Of a stretch of DNA of 64,000 bases, positions 20,847 to 31,460 are shown piece after piece (the first letter of the stretch is position 1; each line of letters starts with the position of its first letter). The position numbers and the translations under genes are program-made. Source of the stretch: an uncultured Rhodospirillaceae bacterium (GTDB taxonomy: Bacteria; Pseudomonadota; Alphaproteobacteria; Rhodospirillales; UBA2165). The stretch covers positions 35,690 to 99,689 of the forward strand of contig CAZMHI010000005.1 of assembly GCA_964566055.1 (NCBI GenBank), read 5' to 3'. The notes below the pieces were generated by a model. The model made no database searches, was not told the DNA's origin, and saw only the letters and a program-made list of their open reading frames with translations.

Positions 20847-22272
20847 TCAGGATCTCCTTGCTTTCAATATTTTCTTTAAGTGCATCAACGACTAGGCCCA
20901 TCAGAGATCCCGCCGAACCTTTGACCAGAACGACATCACCCGGCTGAAGTGCGTCGAGCAGAGGCTCAATGAGCGCTGCGGAATTATTGGTGCGAACGAC
21001 ACCTATTGTTTCCGGCAGAGCGTCACACAAATGTTTCATCTCCGGCCCTGCGGCATAGACAAGATCAACACCGGCAGCAACAACAGGTGTGACTAAGCCT
21101 TGATGAAGGTCTGCTGATTTATCACCAAGCTCCCGCATATCGCCAAGGGCTGCAATCCGGCGGCCTGAAGGCCCCAGCTCTGCTTGAGCCAGAACCTCCA
21201 GCGCCGCCGCGATTGAAACCGGACTGGCGTTGTAGCTGTCATCGATAAGTTCAAAACTGCCATCACCAATAGAAAGGATATGCCGCTCACCCCGGCCTTT
21301 CGGTGGCTTAATCTCGGCGAAGGCACGTGCGGCAGCAAAAACATCGGCGCCGACAGCCTCGACAGCCGCCAGTACAGCTAAGCTATTCATCACCCAGTGA
21401 CGCCCAGGCATCGTCAGCTGATAAGAAAAACGGTAACCATTAAACGAGGCTTCGACGGTTGAGCCATCGGACCGCAGCACAAAATCCAGCAGTTTATATT
21501 GCGCTTCATGATGTACTCCAAAACCGATGACTTTTCCGGCACCTGCCGCTGAAGCGGCATCGGACAGCAAGTCAAAATAGGCGTTATCCCGGTTGAGGAT
21601 GGCCGTACCGCCCTCCTCCAGGCCATTAAATATCTCAGCCTTGGCGCGGGCGATATCTTCGACCGATGAGAAAAACTCGATATGGGCGGGCTCTACCGTC
21701 GTTACAATGGCGACGATTGGCCTGACCATCTGTGATAACGGAGTTAATTCACCGGCATGGTTCATGCCTAGCTCAAACACGGCATATTCTGCACTTTGCG
21801 GCAAACGCGCCAGCGATAGCGGCACGCCAAAATGATTGTTAAAACTACCGCGGCTGTAGGAAGTCTCGCCCTGATCTGACAATAATTTCCCGAGCGCCTC
21901 TTTAACCCCGGTTTTACCGACACTGCCGGTGACTGCGATCACCTTGGCATCTGAGCGGTCACGTCCCGCCCGGCCCAGATCGTTGAGCGCCGCGAAGGTA
22001 TCACTGACTTTCAGCAGCGGCGCCTCGGCGCCAGCCCCGTCAACGGCCTCGGCAACAATCGCCGCTGCCGCGCCATTTTCCAAAGCACTTTGAACATAAT
22101 CATGGCCGTTAAAGTTTGGCCCTGAAATAGCGATAAAGAGGTCATCTTGCTCAACCGTCCGGCTATCAATGGAAACACCCGCAGCGCTCCAATCTGCTGC
22201 TGATATTCCACCGGTTGCTTTGGCTGCGTCATTTGAGCGCCATAACGTGCTGGATTGCTGAAGGCCGGTCAT
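20836..22272 (-). CDS. murF: UDP-N-acetylmuramoyl-tripeptide--D-alanyl-D-alanine ligase
   Basis: 478 aa. Motifs are [18 protein letters not shown] and DDSYNASP. Confidence 0.93.
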
Positions 22273-23780: not shown

Positions 23781-25541
23781 TCAGCGTCTTGTTGCTCTGG
23801 CCGCGATGAAAAGATCATCCCCCGGCTTCGGCAGTTTTTCTGCAAGTTGCGATGGCTTAAGCCCTAACAGAGGCGCCATCCTTTTAACCACGCGCGCAAC
23901 CACTGGGGCGGCCACCCAACCGCCCGTCGCATAGCCATGCGTCCGTTGTGTTCCTTTCGGCTCATCCAACAGCGCCAAAATTACATAGCGCGGTTTATTC
24001 ATCGGGAAGGCCGCGACAAAAGACGAGATCACCCGGCGGTCACCATAACCACCACGCGGGCCCGGTTTATCTGCTGTGCCGGTCTTGCCACCAATCAAAT
24101 AGCCCGGCACATCAGCATTCCGGCCAGTGCCGTTACGCACAACCAAGCGCATCAGCCCACGCATTTTTTTTGATGTAGACTTAGAGAGAACTCTTGAGCC
24201 AACCGCTTGCTGGCCGTTTGAAAACTTGATCATCCTAGGATTATAGAGATTGCCGCCATTAACCAGGGCAGCAATACCGGCAACCAATTGGATCGGACTA
24301 ACTGCAATGCCATGGCCATAGGAAATTGTCATGGTGTTGATCTCGCGCCAGCGATCGGGCGTCAGGGGAGAACCAATTTCCGGCAGTTCAATCGCTGCCG
24401 GTTTCAGCATGCCAAAACGTTTGAGGTATTTTTTTTGACCCGCCGTGCCGACCTCAAGCGCCATTTTAGCGGCGCCGATATTGGAAGAATAGACAATGAT
24501 CTCCGGCACTGAAAGCCAGCGGTTCTTGGCGTGATAATCAGATATTAGAAAACGGGAAACTTTAATTGGCTTAGTCGCATCATAACGATCCCTGAGGCGC
24601 GCCGCACCGGTATCTAGCGCCATGGCGGCTGTGAACAACTTGAAGGTCGAGCCCATTTCATAGACGCCTTTGGTAACCCGGTTGAAGCCGGCAATACCAG
24701 CAGCCGTCACCGGCTTATTAGGATTAAAGTCAGGCAACGAAATCATCGCCCGCACTTCGCCATTGGTCGCATCCATGACCACACCGGCTGCACCTATAGC
24801 CCGAAACTCCGCCATCGATTTCAATAGTTCTTCACGCAGGATCGATTGCACGCGAATGTCCAGCGACAAGGTGATCGGCTCATCGGAGCCGCGCAGGGAT
24901 TTATCAAAATATCCCTCGATACCGGACAAGCCTTGGCCATCAATATTTGTGAGACCCAAAGCATGGGCAACGATGCGGCCATGCGGATAAACCCGCCGTT
25001 CCGTACGCTGAAAATAGAGGCCGGGAATGCCCAGGGCATTAACCGCGAACTGGGTCTTTGGCGTGAGATTTCGCTGCAACCAGACAAAGGTTTTTTTCGC
25101 AGCTAGTTTCGACTGGATTTTGGACCGGTCCAAATTGGGGAAAACCCGGGACAATTTCCGCGCTGCTTCTTTGGGATCAAGGATGTGCTGCGGGTTGGCA
25201 TAGAGCGAGGCAGTCGGCAAACTTGTTGCCAGCAAAATACCATTGCGATCCGTTATATCAGAACGCACCTTGCGCATTTTCGAAGTTGCCGCAATCCGAT
25301 TGTTGCGGGCTTCTTCTCCAGCTTGATCAACCAGAGCCAATTCGACCAATCGTCCGGCGATCACAGCAAAGGCCAGCGTGAATAGTGCACCAGTTACCAG
25401 CAGACGATTACGCCCGATCTCCAGGGCCTGGCGGCGGATGCCTTCGAATTTAATGTGGGTCGGAATTTCAGAGGCGGTCTCCTTTACCGAAACATTGGAT
25501 TCGGGCGGACTAAAGGGGTGACGGAGACGTTCGAAATTCAC
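23781..25541 (-). CDS. ftsI: Peptidoglycan D,D-transpeptidase FtsI (PBP3)
   Basis: 586 aa with an N-terminal TM helix and the penicillin-binding motifs STFK, SSN and KTGT. Its GTG start overlaps the ftsL TGA. Confidence 0.93.
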   Translation of the reverse strand: MNFERLRHPFSPPESNVSVKETASEIPTHIKFEGIRRQALEIGRNRLLVTGALFTLAFAVIAGRLVELALVDQAGEEARNNRIAATSKMRKVRSDITDRNGILLATSLPTASLYANPQHILDPKEAARKLSRVFPNLDRSKIQSKLAAKKTFVWLQRNLTPKTQFAVNALGIPGLYFQRTERRVYPHGRIVAHALGLTNIDGQGLSGIEGYFDKSLRGSDEPITLSLDIRVQSILREELLKSMAEFRAIGAAGVVMDATNGEVRAMISLPDFNPNKPVTAAGIAGFNRVTKGVYEMGSTFKLFTAAMALDTGAARLRDRYDATKPIKVSRFLISDYHAKNRWLSVPEIIVYSSNIGAAKMALEVGTAGQKKYLKRFGMLKPAAIELPEIGSPLTPDRWREINTMTISYGHGIAVSPIQLVAGIAALVNGGNLYNPRMIKFSNGQQAVGSRVLSKSTSKKMRGLMRLVVRNGTGRNADVPGYLIGGKTGTADKPGPRGGYGDRRVISSFVAAFPMNKPRYVILALLDEPKGTQRTHGYATGGWVAAPVVARVVKRMAPLLGLKPSQLAEKLPKPGDDLFIAARATRR

Positions 25542-25879
25542 CGGCGTGACCCCCTTTTGTTAGATTTGTTAGAAATCTTATCGGCTGAAATCGCCTGTTC
25601 ATCACCGTCTTGTCCGGATAACTCCTCCACGGATTTAATTTGCATCGGCTGAGTAGGCTTCATTTCAAGATAGCGCGATGCCAAATCCTTGATCCGGGCA
25701 ACATCGTTCAAATGACTCCATTCGGCCTTGAGGACGTGGATGCCTTCCTGATCAGCGACGATGGCTTTATTGAGAATATTCAGCTCTTCCTCAAGATCGG
25801 TAACCTCATATTTCAAAAAGAACAGCGCAACGCTCATTATGGCTGCGAGTAGAAGTGTGAGTACTGTGGTCTGCCGCAT
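25538..25879 (-). CDS. ftsL: Cell division protein FtsL (alphaproteobacterial type)
   Basis: 113 aa with a single N-terminal TM helix (VLTLLLAAIMSVALFFL) followed by a coiled-coil segment. It sits between rsmH and ftsI. Confidence 0.8.
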   Translation of the reverse strand: MRQTTVLTLLLAAIMSVALFFLKYEVTDLEEELNILNKAIVADQEGIHVLKAEWSHLNDVARIKDLASRYLEMKPTQPMQIKSVEELSGQDGDEQAISADKISNKSNKRGSRR

Positions 25880-25893
25880 GCTCCTCTTCTCCT

Positions 25894-26868
25894 CTATTCA
25901 CCCAAAGTATCTGGCCAAGCAGGTGCATCACTGCGCTCAGCCACTCGAAGCCGGGCGGAACGTGCCCGGGGATTTTCAGCAGCTTCATCCTTTCCAGGTT
26001 TAATGGCGCCGCGCTTCACCAAAGTGAAGCTCGGGACCGGCGCCGTGTCGGGGTTATCGGGCAAATGGCGGGAACCGCGCCCGATCGCCCCACCATGTTC
26101 ATGGAGGAAGGATTTCACTTTACGGTCTTCCAGCGAGTGGAAGGAAACAACGGCCAAGCGGCCGCCGGGACTGAGAATTTTTTCCGCCCCTACCAAGCCG
26201 CGTTCAAGCTCACCGAGCTCGTCATTGACTTGAATACGTAGCGCCATGAAAGTCCGGGTGGCAGGATCGATGCCATCTTTGGACCGGCGCACAATGCTAT
26301 GGATAATTTCAACCAATTGAGTGGTCGATAAAATCGGATCAGTTTCTCTGGCGGCGACAATGGCGCGGGCAATTTTCCGCGCATAACGTTCTTCGCCGTA
26401 GTGATAAATTACATCGGCAATTTCTTCTTCGGGCGCTTGGTTGACAAAATCGGCTGCGGTGGGGCCATCGCCCCCCATGCGCATATCAAGGGGGCCATCA
26501 AAGCGGAAGGAAAAGCCGCGTATTGGATCATCGATTTGCGGCGAAGACACACCGAGATCAAGCGTCACGCCATCGACTTGAGCAACTCCAGCCTCGGCCA
26601 TCAAACTCGCCATATCGCCAAAGCAGCCCTCCAGCACGGTGAGGCGGCCATCATATTTATCGCTCAGTTCAGCGCCAAAGGTAATCGCCGCGGGATCGCG
26701 ATCAATGCCAAAGACTTGCGTCGCGGCGGCTTCTAAAATGGCCCGGCTGTAACCGCCTCGGCCAAAAGTGCCATCGACATAGATGCCGCCGTCACGCGGT
26801 TTAAGCGCAGCGACAACTTCCTGCATCATGACGGGAATATGTCCGGTGTCAGGTGCAGCGGCAGTCAT
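25894..26868 (-). CDS. rsmH: 16S rRNA (cytosine1402-N4)-methyltransferase
   Basis: 324 aa. Motifs are HIPVMMQEV, DGTFGRGGYS, DLGVSSPQ and SFHSLEDR. It overlaps mraZ by 4 nt. Confidence 0.95.
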   Translation of the reverse strand: MTAAAPDTGHIPVMMQEVVAALKPRDGGIYVDGTFGRGGYSRAILEAAATQVFGIDRDPAAITFGAELSDKYDGRLTVLEGCFGDMASLMAEAGVAQVDGVTLDLGVSSPQIDDPIRGFSFRFDGPLDMRMGGDGPTAADFVNQAPEEEIADVIYHYGEERYARKIARAIVAARETDPILSTTQLVEIIHSIVRRSKDGIDPATRTFMALRIQVNDELGELERGLVGAEKILSPGGRLAVVSFHSLEDRKVKSFLHEHGGAIGRGSRHLPDNPDTAPVPSFTLVKRGAIKPGKDEAAENPRARSARLRVAERSDAPAWPDTLGE

Positions 26869-27347
26869 GAACCATCCCCCTCATCGGAGCGAAGACGAAG
26901 TGTCGCACCCCTCGACCGGGCGCGTTCAAAGGCTTCGGCATTGTGGGTTTCGTAAGCGGCGGGTTGCCAAATTTGAAACCGGGTGCCACGGCCAACAAAA
27001 ACGGCTTCAGAGGATAGGCCGGCATAGTCAATAAGCTCTTCCGGGAATTGGACCCGGCCTTCAGTGTCGTAAGCCAGCTGATGAGAATTTTCCAGCAAGG
27101 TCGTGGCGAGGTCATCCTGCTCATCGGAAAACAACTCAAGATCATCAAGACTTTCAATAACACGTTTGATAAACGCTTCACCGCAACCTTCAATGGCGGG
27201 ATATTTGAAGGAACGATATACATAGATACCGGAGAAATCAGTTTTCTTGGCGGCGGGCAAGGAAAGGGCGTCGCGAAACGGTTTAGGTACCGATACACGC
27301 CCCTTTTTATCAATCTTATTGATATGCCTGCCGATTAACGCAGCCAT
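26865..27347 (-). CDS. mraZ: Transcriptional regulator MraZ
   Basis: It shows the duplicated MraZ motif DKKGRVSVP and DTEGRVQFP. I prefer the ATG at 27347 (AGGCGG lies about 6 nt upstream). The ORF track starts 6 codons earlier at a GTG at 27365. Confidence 0.9.
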   Translation of the reverse strand: MAALIGRHINKIDKKGRVSVPKPFRDALSLPAAKKTDFSGIYVYRSFKYPAIEGCGEAFIKRVIESLDDLELFSDEQDDLATTLLENSHQLAYDTEGRVQFPEELIDYAGLSSEAVFVGRGTRFQIWQPAAYETHNAEAFERARSRGATLRLRSDEGDGS

Positions 27348-27475
27348 TTTTTCCCGCCTCAACACATTTTGACGGTGAGTTTCTAAAGCTTTCTAAATGA
27401 GGTCCCGTCCCCCAGAAAACCTAAATAATTAGTGTTCAACCGTCATTTTAACACCCATCCAAAACACCACTACAA

Positions 27476-27540
27476 ATGGGCTTATTTGGGATACCATGGG
27501 ATTTAATGGGCGTCAATGGGATAACGTGCCGTATTATGGG
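27476..27540. promoter_or_regulatory. Array of six 10-bp-phased (A/T)TGGG boxes; probable MraZ operator in the dcw promoter region
   Basis: The pentamers are ATGGG 27476-27480, TTGGG 27486-27490, ATGGG 27496-27500, 27506-27510 and 27516-27520. The 27526-27530 slot is degenerate (GTGCC), and ATGGG follows at 27536-27540. The array lies 129-193 bp upstream of the mraZ ATG. TGGGN direct repeats with 10-bp periodicity are the described E. coli MraZ site. Confidence 0.65.
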
Positions 27541-27723
27541 TTAAGAAAGTCTTTCCAGACACGCTTTTGCTCCCAGAATTCCCCAACGATCCCTCGACTG
27601 GAAAGCAGTTCTAGACGCAAATTTGGGCGGAAATAGGGACACAGAATGGCCTAATTGTGTTAAGGAGCCATGAAACGATTAATTTTAAAAAGGTCTCCTG
27701 GGAGAGATAAATTTAATGAGCCG

Positions 27724-28665
27724 TTAAATCGTCTCAGAGAAATACTCGATGGTTTTCTCGAGGCCTTGCTCTAACTGCACGGTCGGCTGCCAGTCGAGCT
27801 TTTCCTTGGCCAAGCTGATATCCGGACATCGTTGCAAGGGATCGTCCTCCGGCAAGGGCTCGTAAATCAATTCAGATTTTGCACCGGTCATTTTAACCAC
27901 AAGCTCTGCCAATTGCAGGATTGTAAATTCGCCGGGATTGCCGAGATTAACCGGCCCTGTCACCTCGTCAGGTGAACCCATCAGCCGCACAAACCCGTCC
28001 ACTAAATCATCGACATAGCAGAATGAGCGGGTCTGACTGCCATCACCATATATGGTAATCGGCTCACCACGCAGCGCCTGAACAATAAAATTTGAAACCA
28101 CCCGGCCATCATCCGGGCGCATCCGCGGCCCATAGGTATTAAAAATCCGGGCAACTTTAATTCTTAAACTGTGCTGACGGTAATAATCAAAAAACAGGGT
28201 CTCGGCGCAGCGCTTGCCTTCATCGTAACAGGCCCGCGGACCGATCGGATTGACGTTACCACGATAATCTTCGCTTTGCGGATGAACCGTGGGATCGCCG
28301 TAAACTTCACTAGTGGAGGATTGAAAAATCTTAGCCCCGGTGCGTTTGGCCAGTCCGAGCATATTTATCGCACCATGTACGCTGGTCTTGGTGGTCTGCA
28401 CAGGATCATATTGATAATGAATGGGCGAAGCCGGACAGGCGAGGTTATAAATTTCATCCACTTCAACATAGAGTGGAAATGTCACATCATGGCGCATTAA
28501 CTCAAAATTTGTATGATCCAGCAGCGGTGCAATATTATCCTTGGTACCGGTAAAGTAGTTATCGAGACAAATAACATCGTGACCAGCTTTAACAAGAAAT
28601 TCGCTTAAATGAGAGCCAATAAAGCCAGCGCCGCCAGTGATCAAAATTCGCTTACGAAGTGCCAT
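27724..28665 (-). CDS. uxs: UDP-glucuronate decarboxylase (UDP-xylose synthase), extended SDR family
   Basis: 313 aa. Motifs are [22 protein letters not shown] and the catalytic YDEGKR. The overall pattern matches the UXS/ArnA-decarboxylase family. Confidence 0.8.
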
Positions 28666-28892: not shown

Positions 28893-30173
28893 ATGGCTGA
28901 TACTTCGTCCGTAATCACCTCCGTGTCGGAACGGCGAACACCGGAAAGTTCGCTGCTTGATCATGTTGAACGGGTCGCTCATTCAAGGAGCGGGCGCTTC
29001 GCCGTGCAGGTACATTTATCGAAGCTGCGTCCGCATAATCGCCAGCCCCATCACGTTCGAATTGCCGCACGGAGTTTCGATTCGGTTTTAAACTCTGCGG
29101 AATCAAATCTCTATGTCATGACATCAAATGACCTGGTTCTCATCTGCAAAGACGTCCGGATTGATGACATCGACATCGTGATCGAAAAATTACGCTCTTT
29201 GTTCCGGAACGATCCGTTGGCAGCTGGCGGCAAGGGCTCGGCCCGCGATAAATTTACCTCGTGGTATGATTTTGAAGACGATTACGATTCCTTTCTCCAA
29301 CTGGTTCTGGAAATGTCAGAATACCAGAGCGACATGATTGGTCTGGGTGAAGATGCGTCCGCCGGACGAGGTCTCGGCACCGGTTTCTTGGGCGAGGCTC
29401 TTGATCCTTTCAGTCTGGCTAAAGTTAACGATTCCCTTAATCGCACCCGGGTTCAAGATATGATCCAGCAGCAGCCGGCGGTCATTATCGGCGCCGATGG
29501 CACGGAGCGCATATTATTTCAGGAAAACTATCTTTCCATTGCTCAATTGCAGCAGCGCGTGGCACCCGGCTATAATCTGGTTTCCAACCAATGGCTATTT
29601 CAGCATTTAACTCAAACAGTGGATCGCCGTATTCTGTCTGCACTTATCCGGGACGATTACGCCACTCTCGAAGATGCCATCAGCATTAATTTAAATATCA
29701 GCACATTGTTGTCGAAGGACTTCCAGCGGTTTGATGAAGTGGTAGCGGAATTTACCGGTAAGGTCGTCATTGAAATGCAGCAAATTGACGTATTTTCCGA
29801 TCTTGATAATTATCTTTATACCAGATCCTGGCTAAAGGATCGCGGCTATCGGATTTTACTCGACGGTTTAAATCCGATGTCCTTGCATTATTTTGATCCG
29901 GGTCTGTTAGATGCGGATTATTACAAGGTAGGCTGGGGTATAGAGTTTACTGAAACTGAATCGATTGAAGATCATGCTGATATTGGCGAAGTCGTCGACA
30001 AAATCGGTCCTGATCGCTTTATCCTGGCGCGCACGGAAACAGAAGATGCCCTACGTTGGGCACTGACATTGGGCATTCGACGCTTTCAAGGCTACTTCAT
30101 CGACGATTTGGTTCAGCGCCAGATTGAAAAAGAGGGCCAGTTGGCAGGCACTCAAGACAAGGTGGTGCATTAA
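28893..30173 (+). CDS. Hypothetical cytoplasmic protein: degenerate GGDEF-like N-domain plus catalytically degenerate EAL-like C-domain (paralogue 1)
   Basis: 426 aa. The N-terminus AVQVHLSKLRPHNRQPHHVRIAARSF...YVMTSNDLVLI lines up by eye with the GGDEF-domain pattern xDiDhFKxiNDxxGHxxGDxxL...RxGGDEFxxl. The C-terminus ISINLN, VVIEMQ, GYRILLDGL, YYKVGW, ILARTET and RRFQGYF lines up with the EAL blocks vNlS, lEitE, iAlDDFG, lKiD, AEGVE and QGy. This is a manual alignment only. Confidence 0.55.
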   Translation: MADTSSVITSVSERRTPESSLLDHVERVAHSRSGRFAVQVHLSKLRPHNRQPHHVRIAARSFDSVLNSAESNLYVMTSNDLVLICKDVRIDDIDIVIEKLRSLFRNDPLAAGGKGSARDKFTSWYDFEDDYDSFLQLVLEMSEYQSDMIGLGEDASAGRGLGTGFLGEALDPFSLAKVNDSLNRTRVQDMIQQQPAVIIGADGTERILFQENYLSIAQLQQRVAPGYNLVSNQWLFQHLTQTVDRRILSALIRDDYATLEDAISINLNISTLLSKDFQRFDEVVAEFTGKVVIEMQQIDVFSDLDNYLYTRSWLKDRGYRILLDGLNPMSLHYFDPGLLDADYYKVGWGIEFTETESIEDHADIGEVVDKIGPDRFILARTETEDALRWALTLGIRRFQGYFIDDLVQRQIEKEGQLAGTQDKVVH

Positions 30174-30176
30174 GTT

Positions 30177-31460
30177 ATGGCGACACCTCCAGCAACTCAA
30201 CAGCGCATACCGAGCCAGGAAAACCTGCTGTTGGATTATATCCACCGGCTTGAATCTCACAAAGAAGACCGGCGGGCGGTTCACATTCACCTCTCGGCGC
30301 TTAAGGCGCAAAACCGGCGGGAACATCATGTTCGGCTGGCAGCCAATACTTTTGATCCCTTGATCAAAATGCTGGAAGGTCAACTCTTCACTCTTAGCAA
30401 CAGTGATCTGTTTTTCATCTATAAAGGTAATGCTCAAAGCGACGTCGAAACTTCAATGCTTAAACTGAGGTTTTTGTTCAGCGATGACCCCTTGATGTCC
30501 GGTGCCGATGAAGGCGATAACGCGAAGTTTCGTACCTATTACGATATTGAGCAGGATTACGAAACCATCCTCGCCCTGGTGCGCAAACTCGTGCATGAAG
30601 AAAGCAGTGAAAAAGCGGCTGACGAAGAAACAGCAGACCCAAAAGCTGCCCTGCAGGCGAAGCAGTCAAAGGGAGAGCCGCTAACCCCGCGGGTACTGGG
30701 CCGGGTCGAGCAGGCGCTCCAACGGGCGGATATTTCCAACATGGTGCGGCGCCAGTTTATCTGTGCGCTTATCGGTCAGGCGGCGCCGCAGCCGCTGTTC
30801 AGCGAACTCTTTATTTCAATCGCCGATCTCCGCGAAACTCTGATGCCAGGTGTTAATGTTAGCGCTAGTCCGTGGTTGTTCCAGCACCTGACGGAAACCC
30901 TCGATCGGCGGATGTTGTCAATGCTGAGCAAAACAAACGATAACTCAATCACCGGCGAGATCAGCATCAACCTTAACGTATCAACCCTGCTGTCGCCTGA
31001 ATTTATGCAATTTGATGATGCTGTGATTGCCTCAATGCGTGGCTCGGTTGTTATTGAATTGCAGAAAATAGATATATTTTCAGATATAAATGCGTTTTTG
31101 TTTGCCCGCGAATTCGCCAAGGATCGCGGTTATCGAATTTGTATTGATGGCCTGGCTTACGACACGATTAATTTTATTAATCGGGAGAAACTGGGCGCCG
31201 ATATGGTGAAGCTAATTTGGGATCAGGAACTGGTCGACACAATCGGCAAGAAAAAGACCTCAGATATCGTGTCCGAAATAGGTAGCTCGCGACTTATTCT
31301 CTGCCGTTGTGATGACAATCAAGCAGTCGAGTTCGGCCAATCGGTCGGCATCAGCATGTTCCAGGGCCGCCATATCGAAAATCTAATCGCTGAAGAAAAT
31401 CGCCGCCGCGAGATCGAAATGGCTAAACGCCGCTCACAGAATTTGGACTTTATTGACTAA
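30177..31460 (+). CDS. Hypothetical cytoplasmic protein: degenerate GGDEF-like plus EAL-like domains (paralogue 2 of 28893..30173)
   Basis: 427 aa. Its ATG lies 3 nt after the paralogue-1 stop. Blocks shared with paralogue 1 are HLSxL..NR..HHVR(I/L)AA..F, WLFQHLT(Q/E)TxDRRxLS, ISINLN(I/V)STLLS, VVIE(M/L)Q(Q/K)ID(V/I)FSD, KDRGYRI and FQG. Confidence 0.55.
   Translation: MATPPATQQRIPSQENLLLDYIHRLESHKEDRRAVHIHLSALKAQNRREHHVRLAANTFDPLIKMLEGQLFTLSNSDLFFIYKGNAQSDVETSMLKLRFLFSDDPLMSGADEGDNAKFRTYYDIEQDYETILALVRKLVHEESSEKAADEETADPKAALQAKQSKGEPLTPRVLGRVEQALQRADISNMVRRQFICALIGQAAPQPLFSELFISIADLRETLMPGVNVSASPWLFQHLTETLDRRMLSMLSKTNDNSITGEISINLNVSTLLSPEFMQFDDAVIASMRGSVVIELQKIDIFSDINAFLFAREFAKDRGYRICIDGLAYDTINFINREKLGADMVKLIWDQELVDTIGKKKTSDIVSEIGSSRLILCRCDDNQAVEFGQSVGISMFQGRHIENLIAEENRRREIEMAKRRSQNLDFID

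Follow-up and report, generated by a model that had tools for sequence, protein, structure and literature searches.

A putative MraZ operator, inverted and enlarged, interleaved with the mraZ promoter of an uncultured Rhodospirillaceae bacterium

The region upstream of mraZ was analyzed in a stretch of 64,000 nucleotides from an uncultured Rhodospirillaceae bacterium (contig CAZMHI010000005.1, positions 35,690 to 99,689; to be referred to as the window). An array of (A/T)TGGG boxes in exact 10-bp registers is located in the intergenic region there, at the head of a cluster formed by mraZ, rsmH/mraW, an open reading frame (ORF) of the size of ftsL, and a PBP3-like gene. The segment at 27476-27555 on the minus strand is likely to be the main promoter of mraZ-rsmH-ftsL-ftsI, the genes for cell wall and division (dcw/mra), interleaved with a direct-repeat MraZ operator that would confer autorepression. 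By analogy with the characterized systems, the boxes are very probably an enlarged, inverted version of the known MraZ operator. The phased boxes and their conservation, the conserved core of the promoter, the placement, from published data, of the transcription start site (TSS) in homologous promoters, and the contact residues of MraZ are established.

Seven consecutive 10-bp registers are present on the plus strand. Six of them carry ATGGG (27476-27480, 27496-27500, 27506-27510, 27516-27520, and 27536-27540) or TTGGG (27486-27490), and the register at 27526-27530 is degenerate (GTGCC). The array is made up of five contiguous boxes and one more beyond the skipped register, with an exact spacing of 10 bp throughout. 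A reading of the sequence matches exactly the six boxes and one degenerate register given in a preliminary description of this DNA. Over the five contiguous boxes, the sense strand of mraZ reads CCCA TTGACG CCCA TTAAAT CCCA TGgTAT CCCA AATAAG CCCA. The motif TATCCCA is found at boxes r=-3 and r=0, at a distance of exactly 30 bp (the registers are numbered as in Table 1).

Such phasing is confined to the array. The pattern TGGG-N6-TGGG-N6-TGGG has three overlapping occurrences in the 64-kb window, all of them within the array, and a search of the window for a regulon found no other phased triplets. No phased triplet appeared in 100 dinucleotide-preserving shuffles. Of the six TGGG-N6-TGGG pairs that the window contains, four also belong to the array, and the two remaining ones, at 21393-21406 and 27572-27585, are at the level of chance (expected mean 2.46). 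The latter pair, TGGGGAATTCTGGG on the minus strand, has TGGG on the mraZ sense strand, the orientation found in E. coli, and is located about 100 nt upstream of the predicted TSS. It shows partial conservation in the closest relatives, and its occurrence in the window is at chance level.

The start of mraZ is the ATG at 27347, which is backed by the alignment of orthologs and by a GAGG Shine-Dalgarno sequence at 27357-27360. The mechanical ORF call begins instead at a GTG, 18 nt further upstream than this true start (27348-27365). As mraZ is on the minus strand (26865-27347) and its ATG is backed by the ortholog alignment, the array is indeed located 129-193 bp upstream of the ATG, and its boxes read CCCA on the sense strand of mraZ and TGGG on the plus strand, as described earlier. 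The array has no divergent partner gene, since the upstream epimerase/dehydratase gene is co-oriented with mraZ.

The boxes are interleaved with a predicted promoter on the minus strand, with a perfect -35 hexamer, a 17-nt spacer, a TG extension, and a -10 hexamer (TATCCC) without the final T. A sigma-70-type housekeeping promoter of alphaproteobacteria has TTGAC(A/G), a spacer of 16-18 nt, a -10 hexamer similar to TAnnnT, and a TSS 5-9 nt downstream; the window agrees with it in the -35 and the spacer, and departs from it in the -10. A core of the form TTGAC(G/A/T)-17/18-TGnTAT(C/T)CC is observed in all 26 genome loci, including two that have no recognizable array, and the spacer is 18 nt long in two loci. 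The -10 hexamer is presumably non-consensus because its 3' half is itself a box (TAT-CCC).

Table 1. Features of the mraZ upstream region and of the neighboring genes. Coordinates are those of the window, signed positions are relative to the predicted TSS, and loci are the genome loci.
Feature	Position	Strand	Remarks
PBP3-like gene	23781-25541	minus	after the ftsL-sized ORF
ftsL-sized ORF	25538-25879	minus	after rsmH/mraW
rsmH/mraW	25894-26868	minus	Pfam MraW match; next after mraZ
mraZ	26865..27347	minus	Pfam MraZ (PF02381) and PDB MraZ matches
5' leader, ~134 nt	27348..27480	minus	from the predicted TSS; GAGG Shine-Dalgarno at 27357-27360
Box r=+1	27477..27480	minus	+2..+5; strict CCCA in 15/26 loci
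Predicted TSS (G, +/-2 nt)	27481	minus	gapless alignment to the mapped primary TSS of A. fabrum C58 Atu2103
Box r=0	27487..27490	minus	-9..-6; CCC is the 3' half of the -10 TATCCC; 25/26 loci (TCCA in L023)
Extended -10 TGgTATCCC	27488..27496	minus	TG at 27495-27496, TATCCC at 27488-27493; TGnTAT(C/T)CC in all 26 loci
Box r=-1	27497..27500	minus	-19..-16; abuts the TG of the extended -10; strict CCCA in 26/26 loci
Box r=-2	27507..27510	minus	-29..-26; within the promoter spacer, directly after the -35
-35 TTGACG	27511..27516	minus	near-invariant in the anchored alignment; TTGAC(G/A/T) in 26/26 loci
Box r=-3	27517..27520	minus	-39..-36; directly upstream of the -35; same position in the A. fabrum promoter
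Degenerate register r=-4	27526..27530	minus	about -49..-46; GGCAC on the sense strand; full CCCA in 0/26 loci
Distal box r=-5	27537..27540	minus	-59..-56, in TTAACCCA; strict CCCA in 17/26 loci; MraZ assignment uncertain
Conserved upstream element GAAAGACTTTCTTAAC (GAAA-N7-TTAAC)	27540..27555	minus	about -74..-59; high information content
UDP-sugar epimerase/dehydratase family gene	27724-28665	minus	co-oriented with mraZ; upstream neighbor

A scan with the MraZ protein, with one genome per species, returned 25 loci. They come mostly from metagenome-assembled genomes (MAGs) of marine Rhodospirillales, and also from Magnetospirillaceae, Caulobacterales, and unclassified Alphaproteobacteria. Nearly all of the loci have three to six CCCA boxes on the sense strand, in exact 10-bp phase and 65-200 bp upstream of the ATG, and the consensus box of the clade is CCCAT on this strand (ATGGG on the other). 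Phased CCCA arrays are observed from 94% down to about 39% MraZ identity, and a reduced form at 35-42%. The number, phase, and orientation of the boxes, the conservation of which had been proposed as a check, are therefore kept in orthologous promoters down to about 39% identity. Phased TGGG on the mraZ sense strand was found in none of the genome loci, and TGGG is opposite to the mraZ strand in every locus with an array, both in the genomes and among the metagenome matches listed.

With the loci aligned without gaps and anchored on TTGAC, the consensus is gAAA.acTTt.TTAaCCCA...cCA...TatCCCATTGACGCCCATtaaatCCCATGaTATCCCAaata..cCCA, and the information content is close to zero right after the last box. 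The spacers between the boxes are as conserved as the boxes themselves in the arrays printed in register. The longest array seen is that of a Magnetospira MAG (L016), where eight (C)CCA registers follow one another in phase, some 135-205 nt upstream of mraZ, a number equal to that of the subunits of the MraZ octamer. One homolog search listed relatives of 60% identity or more, and another, seeded with a Caulobacterales MraZ, found 32 marine relatives and no model species.

The module was also searched for in soil, freshwater, and marine metagenomes, with the pattern TTGAC-N11/12-CCCATGnTATCCC, which gave at least 120 loci; the numbers that follow are for the matches listed. An MraZ ORF is found at most 900 nt downstream in 105 of 120 loci, 12 of the 15 loci without it are truncated contigs, and the module is linked to mraZ in 105 of the 108 informative loci. 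Loci L048, L051, and L077 were considered as modules of non-mraZ genes and rejected, as they look like chance matches or unrelated promoters. The two boxes forced by the pattern are the only ones in L048 and L051, and also in L077 to the extent that it was inspected. The metagenomic MraZ proteins share 28-63% identity with that of the window, the N-terminal D.K.R motif is present in all 104 of those recovered, and the G+C content of the loci ranges from 0.28 to 0.72. The predicted leaders are 28-190 nt long, with a median of 109.

Among 116 distinct complete promoters from these matches, strict boxes number one (1 locus), two (17), three (48), four (45), five (4), or six (1), counts that are conditional because the search pattern forces two boxes. 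In the commonest layout, the boxes are in the spacer, abutting the TG, on the -10, and at +1. As three to four boxes are typical elsewhere, the six boxes are a clade-specific expansion. Judged from the sequences, the window, with its extra boxes upstream of the -35, stands at the extreme of a widespread design.

The start site was placed by comparison with mapped promoters in Rhizobiaceae. Differential RNA sequencing of Agrobacterium fabrum C58 located the primary TSS of Atu2103 at 2069197 on the minus strand, with an untranslated region of 171 nt and a gene of 441 nt (PMC10469942). This TSS is listed as GCCGGCTTCATCCCATTGACGCCCATAGTGTCCCATGATATCCCAAATGCA, in a column that gives the 50 nt upstream together with the TSS (PMC10469942). 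The listed segment GCCGGCTTCATCCCATTGACGCCCATAGTGTCCCATGATATCCCAAATGCA has TTGACG at -35..-30, TG at -15/-14, TATCCC at -12..-7, and boxes at -39, -29, -19, and -9, and its +1 is exactly 7 nt after the TATCCC of the same module. Transfer of this position to the window gives G27481 as the predicted TSS and places the boxes between -59 and +5 as in Table 1. The gene itself resembles mraZ, as 441 nt is the length of S. meliloti mraZ and of the MraZ ORF at locus L031. The Atu2103 promoter is identical to that of L031, where the downstream ORF is MraZ, at 43 of 51 positions. No mention of Atu2103 was found in the texts of the papers searched.

In Sinorhizobium meliloti 1021, ten 5' ends were mapped upstream of mraZ (SMc01857), several of them nearer to mraZ (supplement of PMC3616915). 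Locus L031 carries a string homologous to a 36-nt string upstream of S. meliloti mraZ, and the distance from the element to the ATG is 276 nt in both. On the collinear map based on L031, the last position of the -10 is 2356544, which places the mapped TSS (2356538) 6 nt downstream of it. On sequence grounds, the A. fabrum and S. meliloti mraZ promoters are considered true homologues of the window promoter. Neither of the two TSS papers notes the boxes or ties them to MraZ (PMC10469942, PMC3616915). Leader lengths of about 170 nt for mraZ of S. meliloti and 268 nt for that of R. sphaeroides are given independently by Weber et al.

With the transferred start site, transcription in the window would begin within the array, in agreement with an operator role, for which a TSS near the array had been proposed as a check. 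Two explanations had been offered earlier for the distance to the ATG, a long leader or repression from upstream of the promoter. With the predicted start site, the choice between the two is resolved: the promoter would be interleaved with the boxes, and the leader would be about 134 nt long. A promoter on the plus strand was considered and rejected, as the candidate TATTAT at 27533-27538 lacks both a -35 partner and conservation, and no gene on the plus strand is found downstream of it. On the minus strand, TTTCTT-N18-TTATCC (27519-27524 and 27544-27549) shares its geometry with TTTGTT-N18-ATATTT, the upstream promoter of S. meliloti, and could be a secondary promoter that starts within the main -35.

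The MraZ protein of the window has the residues expected for recognition of the boxes. In cryo-electron microscopy (cryo-EM) structures, Lys13, Arg15, and Arg86 of MraZ read TG(T/G) in successive major grooves (PMC12957436). Both DXXXR motifs and the Lys/Arg contact residues are present in the window protein, and its residues D13, K15, R17, D94, and R98 are invariant in the alignment of orthologs, including that of E. coli. TGG, and hence the TG(T/G) core contacted by MraZ, is found in every box of the window. An Alphaproteobacteria MAG (L023) has one CCCA and three TCCA boxes 85-115 nt upstream of mraZ, with unchanged contact residues in its MraZ. The sequences of these boxes suggest that the first C of CCCA, corresponding to the last G of TGGG, is dispensable. 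The conservation of the boxes, their TG(G/T) core, the contact residues, and the TSS within the array support, by analogy, the idea put forward in the preliminary description that this is a homologous MraZ operator.

The operator of E. coli Pmra (mraZ1p) reportedly consists of three (G)TGGGN direct repeats, which a 2014 study by Eraso and colleagues is said to describe. A check of the E. coli sequence showed three GTGGG boxes with an exact 10-bp spacing, on the coding strand and downstream of the -10, consistent with the three TGGGN repeats one helical turn apart that had been assumed. The window resembles Pmra in its location directly upstream of mraZ at the head of the dcw cluster, its TGGG core, its 10-bp period on one face of the helix, and the proposed autorepression. 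There are also differences. In E. coli, the three boxes belong to the coding strand and are located downstream of the -10, with a leader of some 38 nt, whereas the window has five to six boxes on the template strand and a leader of about 134 nt. Moreover, the boxes of the window span -59 or -39 to +5 and interleave with the -35, the spacer, and the -10, and their 5' flank is A or T rather than G.

Three GTG(G/T) boxes are typical of MraZ operators (PMC12957436), and four are found in Mycoplasma genitalium (PMC12957436) and Burkholderia cenocepacia (PMC7761207). The operator of M. genitalium, AAAGTG(T/G)-N3 repeated four times (PMC12957436), shares with the window the 10-bp direct repeats, the TG(T/G) core, a TSS in or at the end box, and the conserved Lys/Arg contacts. 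In comparison with its four boxes, GTGT core, A-rich flanks, and absence of an interleaved -35-type promoter, the window has more registers, a TGGG core, and an inverted orientation. MraZ of M. genitalium binds cooperatively with multiple subunits, as an opened ring on straight DNA (PMC12957436). PmraBc of B. cenocepacia has four 7-nt repeats with 3-nt spacers (PMC7761207), and is similar to the window in having more than three boxes, an overlap with the TSS, and a long leader (100 nt there). A PmraBc fragment was positive in electrophoretic mobility shift assays (PMC7761207). Unlike the boxes of the window, the Burkholderia repeats are downstream of the -10 'as in E. coli', not in the -35 or the spacer, and are not reported as inverted. 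The mra promoter of Bacillus subtilis has three GTGG(A/T)G repeats, which are required for repression (bioRxiv 10.1101/2022.02.09.479790), and is like that of the window in having at least three repeats in 10-bp phase. It differs from the window, in a comparison of number, core, and period, in its three boxes with a GTGG core.

The boxes of the window point in the opposite direction to those of the E. coli, Bacillus, and Mycoplasma operators. The same inverted arrangement is found in A. fabrum Atu2103, with CCCA-TTGACG-CCCA-N6-CCCA-TGaTAT-CCCA and a leader of about 171 nt (PMC10469942), and probably in S. meliloti, as deduced through L031. The A. fabrum and S. meliloti promoters have four boxes, from -39 to -6, and the window has six. 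In a literature search that did not take in Eraso 2014 and Fisunov 2016, no MraZ operator was found to be described as inverted or from an alphaproteobacterium.

In the proposed mechanism, an opened MraZ oligomer would lay successive subunits on successive major grooves, along one face of the DNA. It would cover the five contiguous boxes, from -39 to +5, and possibly the sixth at -59, past one weak register. Such a skipped register is plausible because MraZ of M. genitalium can do without middle boxes and accepts longer spacers (PMC12957436). By covering the -35, the spacer, the -10, and the start site, MraZ would exclude RNA polymerase and repress mraZ together with the downstream division genes. 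The preliminary description had envisaged DNA wrapped around a ring-shaped oligomer, a picture that is not borne out by the cryo-EM structure, in which the ring opens to lie along straight DNA (PMC12957436). The ring must open because the closed ring cannot fit four boxes (PMC12957436), and an open filament on straight DNA would replace the wrapping of DNA around the ring in the present case. In the promoter itself, the CCC of TATCCC would serve both as the 3' half of the -10 and as a box, for which the invariant TG and the perfect -35 would compensate.

The assignment of the distal box (r=-5) is ambiguous because this box is inside a CtrA-like element. Its sequence, TTAACCCA, is preceded by conserved CTTT.TT and GAAA and overlaps CTTTnTTAAC. 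The CtrA consensus is TTAA-N7-TTAAC, with the half-sites TTAA and TTAAC 7 nt apart. Compared to this consensus, the element at 27540-27555 has an exact TTAAC half, and its upstream half matches at 2 of 4 positions, or at 3 of 4 (TAAA) in L011, L013, and L020. The segment CTTTGTTAAAC upstream of S. meliloti mraZ is a predicted CtrA motif and is also the -35 of the mapped upstream TSS at 2356602 (PMC3616915). This homologous segment is located about 32 nt further from the -35 than the element of the window. Judged by its sequence, GAAAGACTTTCTTAAC could be a site of the CtrA-like or activator kind, or else provide a secondary promoter with its -35. An unassigned 'Motif 2' of S. meliloti, TTTGTTAACCAT, resembles GAAAGACTTTCTTAAC.

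It is a serious alternative, if a rather doubtful one, that only the proximal three to five boxes (-39 to +5) are MraZ sites, and that the 'box' at -59 is a by-product of the GAAA-N7-TTAAC/CTTTnTTAAC element, which would be recognized by CtrA or another factor, or serve as a secondary -35. The operator would then be extended, but not to six or seven registers. In agreement with this alternative, a full CCCA is found in none of the 26 loci in the register that separates the distal box from the proximal ones, and the distal CCCA is always in TTAACCCA, after CTTT.TT and GAAA. The S. meliloti homologue CTTTGTTAAAC was scored as a CtrA motif and as the -35 of TSS 2356602, the distal element is similar to 'Motif 2', and three to four boxes are the norm among the metagenome matches listed, where upstream boxes are rare. 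On the other hand, 17 of 26 loci have the distal CCCA in exact phase, at 20 bp from box r=-3, and the intervening register of many orthologs is a partial CCA(T/C), often as nCCA(T/C). The eight in-phase registers of L016, the tolerance of M. genitalium MraZ for missing middle boxes and longer spacers (PMC12957436), and the mismatch of GAAA-N7-TTAAC to the upstream half of the CtrA consensus also argue for the distal box as an MraZ site. The earlier statement that there are twice as many repeats as in E. coli holds for the extension to five contiguous boxes, and is uncertain for the sixth, distal one, which lies in the conserved CtrA-like element. It is quite possible, though at somewhat less than an even chance, that the alphaproteobacterial MraZ operator as a class is inverted and woven into the promoter, and that in this marine Rhodospirillales clade it has expanded to seven in-phase registers (-59 to +5), near to what a full opened octamer would engage, with its distal end shared with the CtrA-like element.

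The other explanations concern the function of the boxes, the protein that binds them, and the location of the promoter. MraZ could act as an activator or a dual regulator, with the boxes upstream of the -35 (-59 to -36) recruiting or stabilizing RNA polymerase. The boxes gained by this clade are specifically those upstream of the -35, in the place from which class I activators act, and MraZ of Mycoplasma gallisepticum was reported to be an activator on overexpression, in work cited in PMC12957436. This function is unlikely, as the best-conserved boxes are in the spacer, on the -10, and at +1, where occupancy should block RNA polymerase, and in E. coli, B. subtilis, and M. genitalium, repression is the outcome when boxes overlap the promoter or TSS. 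A binder other than MraZ, such as a DnaA-like protein or another alphaproteobacterial cell-cycle factor, or a structural role in which phased G/C and A/T blocks curve the DNA, is very unlikely. In favor of these readings, the assignment to MraZ is made by analogy, the 5' base of the boxes differs from the MraZ consensus, and the orientation is inverted. Moreover, TATCCCA at r=-3 and r=0 matches the DnaA box consensus, TTATCCACA, at 6 of 9 positions. Against them, the invariant CCCA/TGGG and the 10-bp period are common to the experimentally defined MraZ boxes of E. coli, nearly all occurrences of the module are upstream of mraZ (105 of the 108 informative ones among the matches listed), and the MraZ contact residues are invariant. 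Arrays of DnaA boxes are not known to consist of direct repeats with CCCA cores and a 10-bp period. A DnaA box array was rejected directly, as the best boxes, TTATCCCAT and GTATCCCAA, match TTATCCACA at no more than 6 of 9 positions and have an invariant CCCA rather than a CACA end, and the spacing is also off. A sigma-32-type reading of the repeats was rejected as well, based on sequence mismatch and spacing.

The functional promoter of mraZ might instead be elsewhere, within the 134-nt 'leader' or by read-through from the upstream epimerase gene, with the array acting at a distance. The co-oriented upstream gene with only weak terminator-like features, the lack of a canonical promoter in 27200-27900 in an E. 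coli-type scan, and the several S. meliloti 5' ends nearer to mraZ would fit this arrangement. It is nonetheless the least probable of the explanations considered here, with hardly any weight given to it. There is no conserved -35/-10-like element between the array and the ATG, and conservation collapses after the last box except at the Shine-Dalgarno sequence. The leader is anywhere from 28 to 190 nt long, with no change in the core, and TTGACG-17-TGnTATCCC is the mapped primary promoter in A. fabrum.

Several observations weigh against an autorepressing MraZ operator interleaved with the main promoter. The base 5' of the TG is A in five boxes and T in one, where the GTG(G/T) consensus has G, and the boxes face the other way from those of the characterized operators. 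The assignment to MraZ is based on analogy and conservation, and the distal box may be part of another element. The scan of 27200-27900 for E. coli-type promoters gave no sites; such a scan misses this promoter because its -10 hexamer ends in C instead of T, and is uninformative for this class. The identification of Atu2103 as mraZ is indirect, as it is presumed in part from the numbering of the C58 genes, and the TSS near 27481 is a prediction transferred from Rhizobiaceae rather than from this clade. The placement of the S. meliloti TSS is also indirect, made through the sequence of L031, and there may be further promoters upstream of S. meliloti mraZ, given the ten 5' ends. The -10 regions are poorly conserved in S. 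meliloti and other alphaproteobacteria, according to the S. meliloti TSS paper (PMC3616915). On the whole, we infer that MraZ is the binder of the boxes, that its binding represses, and that transcription in this organism starts at the predicted site.

The leader of about 134 nt shows few features of its own. No match was found for it in an Rfam search, its fold is not significantly stable (z = -1.07), and no terminator-like site was detected on the minus strand in 27348-27481. An inverted repeat, TGACGG...CCGTCA (27370-27375 and 27440-27445, minus strand), closes most of the minimum free energy fold and is conserved in the closest relatives. This stem has only wobble-compatible single changes and no compensatory pairs, with a covariation term of 0.11. 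The UpsM system of Rhodobacter sphaeroides (PMC5089854) is similar in having an alphaproteobacterial mraZ with an unusually long leader from a single distal promoter. The UpsM leader is 268 nt long, with a strong intrinsic terminator, and gives an abundant small RNA (PMC5089854), whereas that of the window is 134 nt long and has no terminator-like site. The leader is not of the UpsM type, given the lack of a terminator-like site, an Rfam match, and a significant fold, and for a structured leader or a riboswitch in general the Rfam and folding results gave no positive sign.

Beyond the upstream neighbor of mraZ, two adjacent ORFs on the plus strand (28893-30173 and 30177-31460) encode 426 and 427 residues, and their translations are alike by eye. 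The first has a sub-threshold match to the EAL domain (E = 3.6e-4, below the Pfam cutoff). The two ORFs may encode degenerate proteins related to cyclic di-GMP.

MraZ is among the most widely conserved bacterial regulators, and its operator has been characterized in few species. In all of these, it has three or four boxes that are read on the coding strand, either at the -10 or downstream of it. The arrays described here would represent a lineage-wide alternative design, inverted and interleaved with the -35, the spacer, the -10, and +1, in which the number of boxes ranges from two to about eight. They would be natural test cases for the model of ring-opening, filament-like binding from the 2026 cryo-EM study, with regard to the number of subunits engaged and their polarity. 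The odd but invariant -10, TATCCC with a TG extension, would be explained as a shared-base compromise between RNA polymerase and the repressor. The finding would also provide an operator annotation for Agrobacterium and Sinorhizobium, whose mraZ TSSs have already been mapped. If the operator is inverted, of seven registers, and shared with CtrA, repression by MraZ would be independent of orientation, the length of the operator would tune the number of MraZ subunits engaged, and the autoregulation of MraZ would be physically coupled to a cell-cycle or activator input at a single promoter.

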